IMG/VR virus record: IMGVR_UViG_3300048587_000983
Length of the DNA stretch: 64,000 nt
DNA from: a virus
Direction: 5' to 3' (one strand)
Positions 59,818 to 64,000 of this stretch are shown in pieces. Every line of letters begins with the position of its first letter. Within the stretch, counting starts at the first letter, position 1. A model generated the notes under the pieces. It had not been told where the DNA came from. It did not search any database and was given only the letters and a program-made list of their open reading frames with translations. A program made the position numbers and the translations under genes.

Positions 59818-59823
59818 CGTAAG

Positions 59824-60210
59824 TGGACCTGGCGGGAGTTGAACCCGCGTCCGAAAGACAAAGGCAATGACAGCTCTACATGCTTGTCCCCGGGTCAACT
59901 CCGGGGCGAGGAAGGGTGCACCGGTTAGGGTGCAGCTCCACCAGCCAGGATCTGGCTACGGCTCCTGGCGGCCGCTTTTGCCCTCAGATGACCCGCTGAC
60001 GGCGACGGGGCTGGTCGGATAACGGCACGGGCCAGCACGCTCCCTGGCTGCGATTAGGCGGCCAGCGCGACCTTTTCAGCCTTGCGGCCGAACTCTACGC
60101 GGATGACATTATCGGTGTCATTTAGGTTTTGCCTCGGTTGTTATCGGGCCCCAAGACACGCCCGGCATGCACCGGCACTCTTCGCCTCCCGTCGAAACCA
60201 TTACAGGCCC
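59824..60210 (-). ncRNA. ssrA: tmRNA (transfer-messenger RNA)
   Basis: 5' GGGCCTGTAATGGTTTCGACGGG; 3' GCGGG-TTCAACT-CCCGC-CAGGTCC-A; acceptor stem with G3.U pair (Ala identity); internal tag ORF ending ALAA*. Confidence 0.95.
60054..60119 (-). other. tmRNA proteolysis tag reading frame (A)DTDNVIRVEFGRKAEKVALAA*
   Basis: Resume codon GAC after AAAACCTAAAT; C-terminal ALAA ClpXP-type degron. Confidence 0.85.
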
Positions 60211-60345: not shown

Positions 60346-60624
60346 ATGCACAGCACAGATTATTACGTAAACCGCGCCCTAACAAATTTCCGTCATCCTG
60401 AATACTTCCCAACCAAGGCCCACGAAAAGATTTTTGCGCTCATGGAGCTCGACGGCACATTCCGATCCGACCTGCTCGGGCTGACCTACAGCCACGTCGT
60501 AGAAAAAGACCGATGCCGCCAGCGCATGCAGGAGTTGCGGTCGTGTATTGCTGAAAGTGGCCACCCGTTCAGCGAAAAAGCGCTCGAACGCCTCGCACGG
60601 ATCGAGCGCTCCATGCTGAGCTAG
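60346..60624 (+). CDS. Hypothetical protein (92 aa)
   Basis: SD (GGAG) and ATG; divergent from ssrA. Confidence 0.65.
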   Translation: MHSTDYYVNRALTNFRHPEYFPTKAHEKIFALMELDGTFRSDLLGLTYSHVVEKDRCRQRMQELRSCIAESGHPFSEKALERLARIERSMLS

Positions 60625-61817
60625 CCTCTCCCAAAGGCCTTTCTCACCCACTTGTCGAAGTCGATGCTGATCGTATAGTGGAGGAGCGCGTGAGCAAAAA
60701 CGGCTGCCGCAACGAGAAGAAGGGCCCTGACACCAAGGGTCACGTCAGCCCGCGACTTCTCGGCGGTGGCCTCCACAGTCTGCCGACTCCCGCCTTCAAT
60801 CTCTGTCATTCGAGCAGAGATTTTTTTTAGCTCTTCGGCTTTCTGATCGCGGAGTGTCGGGTGCGTTCTGAGGTTGATCCCATCGCGCTCCAGCTCTCCC
60901 TTGGCGTACTGAATTTTCAGTCTCTGGTATTCAGCGTTGCCGTCGAGCGTTGAAACACTGATCCCTGCGGTTTCGATCTTATGGAGGGCCCCGACCGACA
61001 ATAGGTCCACCCCGAGGAAGAGGGCCAGCGCCAGGTAGCGCACAACCGGGATTTTGACAAAAAAGACAAAGGCCAGAGGAATCAGCACTAAAAGCGTGGC
61101 GATGCCTGTTCCATAGAGCGCCTCGGTGGCGGCTATGAGATAATAGGACATAAAGCCAATCAGGGTCAGAAGCACGAGAGTGCTGAAAACGGTTTTGGTC
61201 GGCGACGGCTGGGGCACCAAACGCATGGGGCTCGTCCCAGCCGTTTTTTCCTTTTCCTCCGACCTTTCTGAGTTCAGTTTCACCCTTTTCACTCGGCGCA
61301 CTGAATTCAGAACTGACTTTTTCTTCGGCATCGGCGCGTCGGCGGCTGGTGACTCAGAATCCTTGTCCTTCAGGGGTTCAGCAGCCTTCTGAAGTTCAGG
61401 TTCTGCCTCAGCACGTTTTTTCTGCGGCGGCATTTCGATCACAACACCCTCTCCGATATGGTGCAGGTGGCTGACTCTGATGGACTGCATCTGCTCGATC
61501 ATCGCAGCCACTTCCGCCTCGGTAATCTCCCTTTCAGGGGGAGGCGGCTCTGAGTTCAGTATGCCAGGACTTTCCGTGTCAGTATCGGATTCTGACTCCG
61601 GATCTGAATTCAGAGGCTCCACTTTGAGAGCTGACGATCCATCAAAATTACCGGTTTCTGCTGGCAGATGCGCACCATACTCCCGCTGGAGAAAAGCCAA
61701 AATATCCTCTTCGCGGACATCGCGGCCGCGTCGATAGCTGATGGCGTTATCCACGGATTTTCTAACCTGAGGGTCCTTGATTCGGGCTCTAAACTGTGCG
61801 ACTTTCTCTCGGGACAT
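60621..61817 (-). CDS. Multi-pass membrane protein with long acidic N-terminal region (398 aa)
   Basis: Three adjacent hydrophobic segments (TVFSTLVLL...; GIATLLVLIPLAFVFFV; YLALALFLGVDLL), a coiled coil and a C-terminal TM; SD AAGGAGG. Confidence 0.75.
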   Translation of the reverse strand: MSREKVAQFRARIKDPQVRKSVDNAISYRRGRDVREEDILAFLQREYGAHLPAETGNFDGSSALKVEPLNSDPESESDTDTESPGILNSEPPPPEREITEAEVAAMIEQMQSIRVSHLHHIGEGVVIEMPPQKKRAEAEPELQKAAEPLKDKDSESPAADAPMPKKKSVLNSVRRVKRVKLNSERSEEKEKTAGTSPMRLVPQPSPTKTVFSTLVLLTLIGFMSYYLIAATEALYGTGIATLLVLIPLAFVFFVKIPVVRYLALALFLGVDLLSVGALHKIETAGISVSTLDGNAEYQRLKIQYAKGELERDGINLRTHPTLRDQKAEELKKISARMTEIEGGSRQTVEATAEKSRADVTLGVRALLLVAAAVFAHALLHYTISIDFDKWVRKAFGRG

Positions 61818-61852
61818 CGTTTGCCTCCTTATCAGGTAAAACGTTTCGCCTC

Positions 61853-61882
61853 GCTGGTGCAGGACTCCCTTCCTGCGCCGGC
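61853..61882 (+). other. 12-bp GC-rich hairpin
   Basis: GCTGGTGCAGGA-CTCCCT-TCCTGCGCCGGC; two G.U wobbles work only on the plus-strand RNA. Confidence 0.6.
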
Positions 61883-62320
61883 AACCCTACCAGCACAAAA
61901 ACCCGCCTTCAATCAATTTTCAGTCATTGCATGGAATTGGCATAGACGCGAAAAATACTGACCTACGGTCTTTTCCGTAGAGCTTCAACTTTTGGGTGAT
62001 GGTAATTGGAAGTGCGTCAGAGGCGTGCTTGAGGCTGGAAGGCTTGATGAGTATGGCCGGGACGCTTCATCCCAAAATTAACGTGGATTTTTTCATCCCG
62101 GCCATGCAAATCATAGATTGCTATACCATGGATCTGCCGTGTGAATTTTCTCAGGACGCGCACGATAAATCCCTGGAACGGTTTCTATTACGACCTCGCT
62201 TCACAGTCAAGCGAAGATCTTTGCGTTTTCGTGCGATCTCCACAAGGCACGGAAATCAGTCCTCAAACCGTCTTCGGGATTTAACCTGCTCTGAAAAACC
62301 TACACCCATATCCCCGTGGT

Positions 62321-62830
62321 TTGGCCGGTGCGGAATCGGCTGCGACGAAACCGGTAGTCGGGGAGATCTTCCTTGCCAGAACTCCCCATAGGCAAAGGCA
62401 CATGGACACGGTAAAGGCTGCCATGAATCAAAGAGGCCAAGGGTCAGATGACCCGACCCGAGTTCCGGGATTGAATCCTTTGGAGACACTGGAAACTGCG
62501 AATGACCCCGCCAGTGATAAAGGACCCCCGGGGCTTGGAACGATGGACAGAGGGTAGGGCGACAGGGCCCCGCAAGGGTCTTTGGGAACCAGGAATGATC
62601 GGGCCTAGGCAACCCGGTCCCATTCCGGCTCCACTTCGCAGTTGGCTGAGCTCATCACTGCATGATGCAAAACGGGGAGATAGATGCGCCCCAGGTTTCC
62701 ATGAGCCCACCGATGTCCACAGCATAGACCTGCTCCCCCGAGCAGTGACAGGGTGAAGAGTCCTTCGCCCATCTCCCGGACGCCTTTTCAAGGCAGATGC
62801 AGGAGAGTTGGGGGTCCGCGCTTTCTCCAC
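62321..62830 (+). ncRNA. Unidentified large structured RNA candidate (~510 nt) upstream of cas6
   Basis: More than 12 nested stems, multibranch junctions and a perfect 8-bp long-range pairing (62522-62529/62810-62817). G.U pairs favour the plus strand. No convincing ORF. Confidence 0.6.
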
Positions 62831-62924
62831 AAGGCCCATCCTTCCGAAAAACCTGAGCTTGAATATTTTCCGTGAACGGGTCACATAAGATAAAACCGAA
62901 AAACTTCAAGTCGAGGGAATAGCG

Positions 62925-63416
62925 TTGCTCTATTGCTACGATACTGGCAGGCCGCCAGATTTAAACGATGTGCATGCGATTATAAGAAAGGCATTCAAAG
63001 AGCGGGTTGCTGTAAGCGTCGAGGGTACCAGGGTTTACGTTGCCACAACCGAGACGCCGCTCGTAACCCCGGACGCCACCTTTGATATGCTGCGCCTCCC
63101 CGAGGGCACTGTTGAGGTTGAGCTGTCGTGCAATGTCGTCTTTGATAGCAAGAGCCAAGGCATTTTCCGAAAGGAGTGGCGGACGCACGAGGCCTTTGCC
63201 ATGTTCACGGCGCAGGCCGGCCTCAAGCCTATAGACTCAGAGATCTATAACCTCGGCCTTCTTGAAACCCACAAGTTCACGATCCGAACGGCTTTCCGCA
63301 TCTACGGCCAATTCAATATTGTCAACCGGGAGCTATTCGACAACGCATATTTCAACGGGGTCGGCGGGCGCCGCTCGTACGGCTTTGGTCTGATCATCAT
63401 CAAAGATTTCAAATAA
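62925..63416 (+). CDS. cas6: Cas6-family (Cas6e/CasE-like) RAMP endoribonuclease, short (163 aa)
   Basis: C-terminal Gly-rich loop FDNAYFNGVGGRRSYGFGLI (GhGxxxxxGhG), N-terminal DVHAII..AF His helix; TTG start with SD GAGGGA. Confidence 0.8.
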   Translation: MLYCYDTGRPPDLNDVHAIIRKAFKERVAVSVEGTRVYVATTETPLVTPDATFDMLRLPEGTVEVELSCNVVFDSKSQGIFRKEWRTHEAFAMFTAQAGLKPIDSEIYNLGLLETHKFTIRTAFRIYGQFNIVNRELFDNAYFNGVGGRRSYGFGLIIIKDFK

Positions 63417-63428
63417 GATGGGAACCTC

Positions 63429-64000
63429 ATGCAAATCAAAACGATCACAGTGAAAGCCGACCTCGACGTAATCGGTATCGTCAACATGAACGGCCGCTCG
63501 ACGACGGCCAAGCAAAAAAACCATCTCTTCGCAAAAAGGGACGCCCTCGGCTTTGACTTCACGTCGAGCCGCCTTCTTCGGCGGACGATCTTCGCTGACC
63601 TCATGCCGCGTCAGCCGGCAACCCGCGAGATGTATGACAACGCGGTGCCCATCGCGGCTTCCATGATAGGGATTGTACGAGGGCTCATGATGCCTGAGCG
63701 CGGCTGCAAAAGGACGAGCCCTCTTTGCGTTCTTGATGCCTACACGCGAAAGGAATACACGCGCCAAAGGAAGACCACTGAGGGGCTTGATGCGCGGGCT
63801 TATCGGGCCACATTCAGTGACATTGGCCGCAGCTCAAAGCCGCAGGAGACAAACCTCACGAATAAAAAAGGCGAAAAAGTAAGCGACACGAGCTTTTGGA
63901 GCAAGGACAACGCCGGCAGGCGTCTTCAGGATTTTGAAGCCAAAATCGATTTCTCCGCTCTGAGCTTTATCTCGCTCAACTACGGCGACGACGCCATTAT
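63429..64000 (+). CDS. cas7: Cas7-family protein resembling Csp1 (type I-B/I-PGING), partial
   Basis: Not in ORF track (runs off the end). MQIKTITVKADLDVIGIVNMNG...TSSRLLRRTIFADLMP...IGIVRGLMM...KRTSPLCVLDA...DTSFWSKDNAG...IDFSALSFISL matches in order the Csp1 blocks as I recall them (L...GIVN, SS..LR..IF...P, G..RG.M, KR.SPL...DA, DTS...K...G, D...L.FIS). Confidence 0.75.
   Translation, partial: MQIKTITVKADLDVIGIVNMNGRSTTAKQKNHLFAKRDALGFDFTSSRLLRRTIFADLMPRQPATREMYDNAVPIAASMIGIVRGLMMPERGCKRTSPLCVLDAYTRKEYTRQRKTTEGLDARAYRATFSDIGRSSKPQETNLTNKKGEKVSDTSFWSKDNAGRRLQDFEAKIDFSALSFISLNYGDDAI

Follow-up and report, generated by a model that had tools for sequence, protein, structure and literature searches.

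A probable large structured RNA in a variable slot upstream of phage cas6 and cas7fv genes

Positions 62318-62817 of the window (the whole 64,000-nt stretch of viral DNA analyzed here) very probably encode a real structured RNA. This core is non-coding and under purifying selection, and it sits inside a 1.1-kb gap that has a divergent 398-aa gene on one side and cas6 and cas7fv on the other. In the reading that we prefer, it is a plus-strand non-coding RNA of a new family, carried on an autonomous phage cassette, acting in trans, and not a component of the Cascade-like complex encoded beside it; we rate the chances of this full statement as about even. Few bacterial or phage RNAs of at least 400 nt have such an intricate fold, and the known large classes (RNase P, group I/II introns, OLE, GOLLD, ROOL) are ribozymes or unusual RNA machines or cages. 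This short list would grow if huge phages carry a new class on a mobile cassette. The locus also makes a compact case for studying the role of such RNAs in infection: the insert is defined, empty slots provide natural controls, and a protein gene is the alternative occupant.

Conservation of the interval was assessed by comparing the contigs of 11 relatives of the Cas6 protein (62-94% identity). Among the loci of these relatives, the intergenic DNA is homologous only in the following:

L001-L003: one JGI lineage, with Cas6 85% identical to that of the window.
L007: Cas6 77% identical to that of the window.
L012: a short contig with Cas6 94% identical, covering only the 3' 310 nt of the RNA.

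The homolog set therefore consists of three full sequences (window, L001, L007) and one partial sequence (L012), all from one phage clade. Comparison of these sequences defines the feature under study:

62318-62817, plus strand: conserved core of the putative structured non-coding RNA, about 500 nt (conservation, nhmmer, covariation).

Nucleotide identity of the core to the window is 80% for L001, 88% for L007, and 93% for the L012 fragment, compared to 49-61% for third codon positions of cas6 and cas7 in the same pairs, an excess of 20-35 points over these neighboring positions. Within the gap, the conservation peak coincides exactly with the interval singled out in the earlier note. Searches with nhmmer found the core at this position alone in the carrier loci, with no second copy in any locus.

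Each pair of homologs is separated by 8-10 indels of 1, 2 or 4 nt, all of which break the reading frame, and the substitutions show no 3-periodicity, being spread evenly across codon positions in every candidate frame. The core does contain long stop-free antisense frames, and these shift register between homologs. Taken together, the conservation, the frame-breaking indels, and the lack of codon periodicity indicate that the block is non-coding and under purifying selection, as expected from the original proposal of a ~500-nt non-coding RNA. A protein-coding reading on either strand was rejected for the same reasons, since homologous translation hops frames. The interval thus combines the generic marks of a structured RNA, namely above-neutral conservation, non-coding status, and compensatory helices on one strand, with power limited by a set of four sequences.

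The secondary structure given in the earlier note had been drawn from the window alone, and we scored it on an alignment of the four sequences (A3). It is 95.5% paired and includes 9 pairs (11 cells) changed on both sides, compared to 3.3 +/- 1.4 such pairs in shuffled controls (0 of 500 reach 9) and 0-5 when partners are shifted by 1-3 columns. The structure computed by RNAalifold is 97.5% paired and has the same 9 two-sided pairs, again above both the shuffle and the slide controls; overall, shuffles give about 3.5 such pairs. With four related sequences only, covariation statistics have low power, and these indications are below R-scape grade. The main elements are as follows:

62319-62454, plus strand: 5' domain, multi-branched, including the hairpins GGGGAG/CTCCCC (62360-87) and CATGG/CCATG (62401-25).
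62476-62524, plus strand: middle hairpin, TCCTTT/AAAGGA around an invariant CACTGG/CCAGTG, with two pairs changed on both sides in L007.
62522-62817, plus strand: 3' domain, closed by the long-range helix GGACCCCC(G)/(T)GGGGGTCC.
62564-62582, plus strand: hairpin AGGGCCC/GGGTCTT, whose CGCAA loop holds the GCAA originally described as a tetraloop.
62592-62626, plus strand: hairpin GGAATG-ATCGGG/CCCGGT-CATTCC with a conserved TAGGC loop.
62751-62770, plus strand: hairpin GGGTGAAG/CTTCGCCC, with the best covariation support (five pairs changed on both sides).

The RNA of about 500 nt would accordingly be built from three parts: the 5' multi-branch domain, the middle hairpin, and the large 3' domain, the last closed by a long-range C5G/UG5 helix. 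The strongest case for a conserved fold is the hairpin at 62751-62770, which reads AGACGCA/TGCGTCT in L001 and GAGCAGA/TCTGCTC in L007, fully different sequences in which pairing is kept. The outer stem of the middle hairpin (62476-81/62519-24) is also among the strongest helices. In the hairpin at 62592-62626 one pair changes from A-U to G-C and U-A, accompanied by three one-sided changes, and the one at 62564-62582 is 100% paired and has one two-sided pair and, in addition, two changes on one side only. The 5' domain is closed either by GTTTGGCC/GGTCAGAT or by TTGGC/GCCAA plus a GGGTC/GACCC hairpin; since changes there are one-sided only, either closing may apply.

The architecture of the 3' domain recurs in independent minimum free energy (MFE) folds of the window, L001, and L007, as well as in the alifold structure, and its interior contains TGGACA/TGTCCA (62544-49/62714-19) and a junction of four hairpins (62592-62692). 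The GGACCCCC/GGGGGTCC pairing is invariant and is extended by one covarying pair, 62530:62809, which is G.U, G-C or A-U depending on the sequence. This contact had been described as pseudoknot-like. Its pairing stands, and its topology may be simpler: in the alifold structure TCTCC pairs with GGAGA as an alternative to CATCT/AGATG, which would make the contact a nested long-range helix closing the 3' domain rather than a pseudoknot. CATCT/AGATG itself is not conserved, being broken in L001, and GCCTT/AAGGC is partly not conserved. All of the motifs quoted in the original list of stems lie where they were placed or at most 1 nt away (TCCTTT begins at 62476, not 62477).

The plus strand, i.e. 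the cas6 strand, is favored, because the alifold energy is lower on it (-128.1 vs. -120.2 kcal/mol for the minus strand) and because G.U pairs on the plus strand become A.C mismatches on the minus strand. The same strand had been proposed from the G.U pairs of the window. Folding energies of single sequences are not better than those of dinucleotide shuffles (MFE z -1.06 for the window, -0.51 and -0.71 for two homologs, and -0.47 for the minus strand of the window), a result that the earlier note had named as one that would count against its RNA. MFE z is a weak criterion in a sequence of 60% G+C, and it is the comparative data that decide.

The genes around the interval give clues to the type of genome that carries it. 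Features flanking the core are listed here in order of position:

59821-60210, minus strand: tmRNA gene (Rfam RF00023, 104.6 bits; ARAGORN), 2.1 kb upstream of the RNA.
60621-61817, minus strand: divergent 398-aa gene with hydrophobic, membrane-like segments, found with or without the RNA.
61950-61976, plus strand: copy A of a promoter-like motif, GAAAAA-N13-15-TTTTCC, which borders the insert on its upstream side.
61977-62292, plus strand: upstream part of the insert, less conserved, holding the inverted repeat GGCCGGGA...TCCCGGCC at 62063-62112.
62293-62317, plus strand: degenerate motif copy B, a candidate promoter of the RNA (motif similarity only).
62846-62873, plus strand: motif copy C, about 50-55 nt before cas6.
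62925-63416, plus strand: cas6e-like endoribonuclease gene, 163 aa (HMM matches and AlphaFold/Foldseek).
63429-64000, plus strand: cas7fv-like gene, cut by the window end (NF040577, E 1.3e-10).

Both cas assignments of the earlier note were borne out. The 163-aa protein has weak matches to the PF08798, TIGR01907, and PADLOC Cas6 HMMs, located on the C-terminal Gly loop, and its AlphaFold model (pLDDT 85) is predicted by Foldseek to share the fold of E. coli and Thermus Cas6e (TM 0.67-0.70; prob 1.00 for E. coli). A full-length homolog of the window's cas7fv-like gene matches PADLOC Cas7fv at 1.7e-11, and PF28157 is present in the cas7fv-like genes of relatives. The 398-aa protein adjoins the slot in all relatives (45-74% identity) and belongs to no Pfam, NCBIfam, PHROG or PADLOC family. 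An integron-like platform with a recombinase was considered and rejected, since this divergent gene is membrane-like and lacks a recombinase signature.

Very long structural ORFs in the window, the tmRNA, and the SNF2 helicase and AEP primase-polymerase genes found in relatives about 4-10 kb upstream point to a large phage. One member of the cas6-product cluster is recorded on a 180.8-kb contig, and the host of the cassette is best explained as an uncultivated phage of about 180 kb. Huge phages have been documented to carry both tmRNAs and CRISPR-Cas loci without adaptation genes (PMC7162821).

No known RNA family accounts for the core. At the gathering threshold, Rfam 15 gave the tmRNA as its only match in the whole window and nothing for the RNA region; GOLLD, ROOL, OLE, HEARO, raiA, introns I/II, RNase P, 6S, and riboswitches were all without a match at gathering score. 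Searches at E<=10 (window 61700-63100 and 62296-62850, and L007) returned noise-level matches only. These scans agree with the initial failure to match RNase P, group I/II introns or common riboswitches by inspection. A single local similarity was seen in L001:9598-9699, where 102 nt align to positions 111-207 of RNase P class A (RF00010) at 14.8 bits (E 0.015-0.033), centered on a AAGGGUGAAAGG S-domain junction and the hairpin following it; other homologs read GGGYGACAGG at this junction. Identity as RNase P was rejected because the score compares to a gathering score of 100, the match is absent in the window and L007, the aligned hairpins conflict with covarying helices, and no P4 core (CR-I/CR-V) is seen by eye. 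We take the match to be due to chance or, at most, to a junction motif shared locally.

The closest likeness in genomic setting is to GOLLD (RF01998) and ROOL (RF03087), for which we know of no protein partner or function. Like the RNA described here, they are large (at least 500 nt), multi-branched, non-coding, and phage-borne, and GOLLD shares with this insert a better-conserved 3' part and a variable 5' part. A self-assembling RNA of the GOLLD/ROOL type would be expected to form homo-oligomeric cages. The present RNA differs from them in giving no match in Rfam by sequence or structure (E<=10), in forming a tiny family of four sequences from one phage clade, and in its adjacency to a cas operon. 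Other RNA genes are near in all cases: GOLLD and ROOL are phage RNAs often found near tRNA islands (PMC12286853), and the present RNA lies 2.1 kb from a tmRNA.

The distribution of the insert is cassette-like. The RNA is present in 4 of the 9 related cas6 lineages sampled (window, L012, L001-3, and L007) and absent in five, where the slot is empty in three and holds a DnaD/O-like initiator gene in two. In L004-6 and L008-9 the slot spans just 200-250 nt, and in L014 it contains a 96-aa ORF. Initiator-like genes of 244-283 aa occupy it in L010/L011 and in L013 plus L020-22; representatives are:

L010:2236-3081, L013:714-1448, and L020:2080-2931: initiator-like slot gene, with weak PHROG replication-initiator and DnaD-like matches.

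These genes are unrelated to the window's DNA, and the possibility that the RNA is a decayed copy of one of them was rejected by the lack of any tblastn match.

The insert is bounded by copies of a shared motif consisting of GAAAAA, about 12-13 nt, and then AATATTTTCC (also written GAAAAA ... ATATTTTCC). Its full form occurs twice in the 64-kb window, as copies A and C flanking the insert. Copy C (25-27 nt) is the only intergenic DNA common to nearly all relatives, including those lacking the RNA, and in the insert-free locus L008 only 49 nt separate copies A' and C, which enclose nothing. The degenerate copy B ends a few nucleotides before the first conserved base of the core (62318) in all three full homologs. 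From these sequence patterns we infer that the motif copies are candidate promoters, operator/regulator sites or recombination sites.

In the preferred reading, a cassette of about 0.9 kb between promoter-like motif copies occupies a variable slot between a membrane-protein gene and cas6-cas7fv. Copy B would drive transcription of the RNA, and recombination between motif copies would move cassettes. We also infer the ends of the transcript and its action in trans, in a moron-like arrangement and a genomic niche like that of GOLLD and ROOL. Phage morons resemble this insert in having a promoter-like motif of their own, a position between conserved genes, a patchy distribution, and a history discordant with that of their neighbors; in contrast to morons, the cargo here is a structured RNA instead of a protein gene, and no terminator was recognized. 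Against autonomy of the cassette counts the fact that every carrier has the RNA directly upstream of cas6 and on the same strand. Scans for sigma-70 promoters and intrinsic terminators found nothing above shuffles, so read-through into cas6 is possible.

These same observations bear on a possible, if unlikely, alternative in which the RNA is a long structured 5' leader of cas6-cas7fv, read through from motif A or B and tuning the cas genes in cis, whether through attenuation, stability or factor sensing. In all 4 carriers the RNA is on the cas6 strand and immediately upstream, and no terminator-like site separates the core from cas6. However, cas6 retains the conserved motif C in relatives lacking the RNA, which implies that the operon does not need it, and other lineages carry a protein gene in the slot. 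The RNA shows no convincing complementarity to the cas6 5' UTR; there, as with the tmRNA and the tRNA-like cluster, only runs of chance length were found. The histories of the RNA and cas6 are also discordant. The RNA of the window is more similar to that of L007 (88%) than to that of L001 (80%), whereas for cas6 nucleotides the order is reversed (73% vs. 81%). Because these identity orders are opposite, the RNA and cas6 differ in history, and there is no co-evolution between them. In the Cas6+Cas7 tree, the position of L007 relative to the other carriers is a polytomy that takes in carriers of the initiator gene. An obligate partner of cas6-cas7fv would be expected to co-occur and co-evolve with it, and what we find is presence in 4 of 9 lineages, discordant identities, and carriers that do not form a resolved group.

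A rather improbable alternative ties the RNA to an array-bearing mini-Cascade, as a structured sensor or leader or as an accessory RNA bound by Cas6/Cas7 that controls or redirects the array in some lineages. If true, this would establish large regulatory RNAs associated with CRISPR as a new class. The array itself can be seen in relatives, whose operons run in the order cas6, cas7fv, and a third gene (about 360 aa), with an ORF-free stretch of 1.2-2.5 kb behind it. This stretch is made up of GCTC-loop-GAGC-G-N-T-A guide units every 42-58 nt, 20 of them in L001 (12558-13600) and about 38 in L007 (4707-7100). The cas system therefore appears to possess its own array, with units verified in relatives. 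The Cascade-like operon does not, it appears, lack an array, and annotating the upstream RNA as its guide should be avoided.

Guide arrays are also present downstream of the third cas gene in L004, L008, and L010. Their hairpins are mostly GCTC/GAGC, with variable loops of 3-10 nt and irregular spacing of 42-58 nt. No cas1, cas2 or cas3 was seen in the stretches examined around the arrays of relatives, and the arrays look hard-wired rather than acquired. The third operon gene (L001:11430-12509; L007:3601-4695) occupies the place of Cas5fv in I-Fv loci and has no HMM match in Pfam, PHROGs or PADLOC.

That the core has no function as RNA, being a DNA-level element or a recently shared sequence whose covariation is a small-sample artefact, we regard as very improbable. 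Only four related sequences are available, such sequences can beat shuffles without any structure, and the MFE z-scores are not significant. This account is difficult to reconcile with an identity 20-35 points above neighboring third codon positions, with the complete rewriting of one hairpin on two occasions while pairing was kept, with the gap between the slide control (0-5 pairs) and the observed 9, or with the tolerance of G.U on one strand only.

The earlier note had offered two alternatives, a large phage RNA or an array-independent scaffold or substrate for Cas6 and Cas7 replacing a CRISPR array. The first of these, as a large phage RNA of unknown class, fits everything found. For the second, in which Cas6 would cut the RNA and/or Cas7 would coat it, alongside or in place of crRNAs, there is now only a slight chance. 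The RNA does adjoin confirmed cas6e-like and cas7fv-like genes, and its CTGCTC/GAGCAG hairpin (62730-45, GCTC/GAGC at 62732-43) shares a GCTC/GAGC stem with the array units. However, AGTG follows this hairpin where the array units have an invariant G-N-T-A handle, and the 64-kb window contains 28 GCTC...GAGC hairpins per strand, so a Cas6 site in the RNA was rejected as being at chance level. In relatives, the operon is followed by 20-38 guide units, the RNA shows no GCTC-loop-GAGC-GNTA unit repeated every 42-58 nt, and it is missing from 5 of the 9 cas6 lineages without co-evolving with cas6. Compared to CRISPR arrays, crRNAs, and solitary repeat RNAs such as CreA and Racr, the RNA is similar in its position beside cas6/cas7 and in having one GCTC/GAGC hairpin, but it is ten times larger, intricately folded, and devoid of a repeat-spacer layout or GNTA handle, and the operon of relatives has an array of its own.

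An equally slight chance attaches to a replication-related RNA module (a primer transcript or an origin, for instance) that can swap places with the DnaD/O-like initiator gene. The alternative slot gene matches PHROG replication-initiator and DnaD-like families, and the SNF2 helicase and AEP primase-polymerase genes lie about 4-10 kb upstream; on the other hand, there is no Rfam similarity to ColE1-type RNAs, lineages with an empty slot exist, and a common slot may reflect a recombination hot spot alone. Least likely of all is a remnant or ORF-less mobile RNA element inserted upstream of cas6 (a group I/II intron or transposon-associated guide RNA), since the presence/absence polymorphism, the direct repeats of the 27-nt motif at the flanks, and an intron-like size and branching are set against the lack of any Rfam match (E<=10) to Intron_gpI, group II domains, HEARO or related models, of a host gene to splice, of a nearby RT, endonuclease or transposase, and of a second copy in any locus.

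Further copies of the preferred phage RNA were sought in larger collections. Scans of IMG/VR with four patterns, with Cas6, and with a Cas7 alignment gave nothing or chance matches (L015 among the latter), a pattern scan of JGI metagenomes gave one chance match (L016), one of GTDB genomes gave three (L017-L019), and BLAST against GenBank phages and plasmids gave no further copies. The IMG/VR, metagenome, and genome pattern scans also missed known carriers and so have no power to show absence. The same applies to RNA copies unlinked to cas genes, none of which turned up in the pattern scans of these three collections that likewise missed known carriers. A 23-nt block from the 5' part of the RNA, GGTTTGGCCGGTGCGGANNCGGC, is found exactly in three bacterial MAG contigs (L017:1677-1699, L018:6547-6569, and L019:5787-5809). 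These were rejected as homologs because two of the matches fall within long ORFs that are unrelated and all similarity ends with the 23-nt block, as expected for a GC-rich chance match.

The upstream part of the insert behaves differently from the core, with no strand preference in alifold (61977-62317). Its inverted repeat at 62063-62112 is 86-98% conserved in otherwise variable surroundings, encloses an ATCC/GGAT hairpin and a T-run, and might serve as a DNA site or encode a second small RNA.
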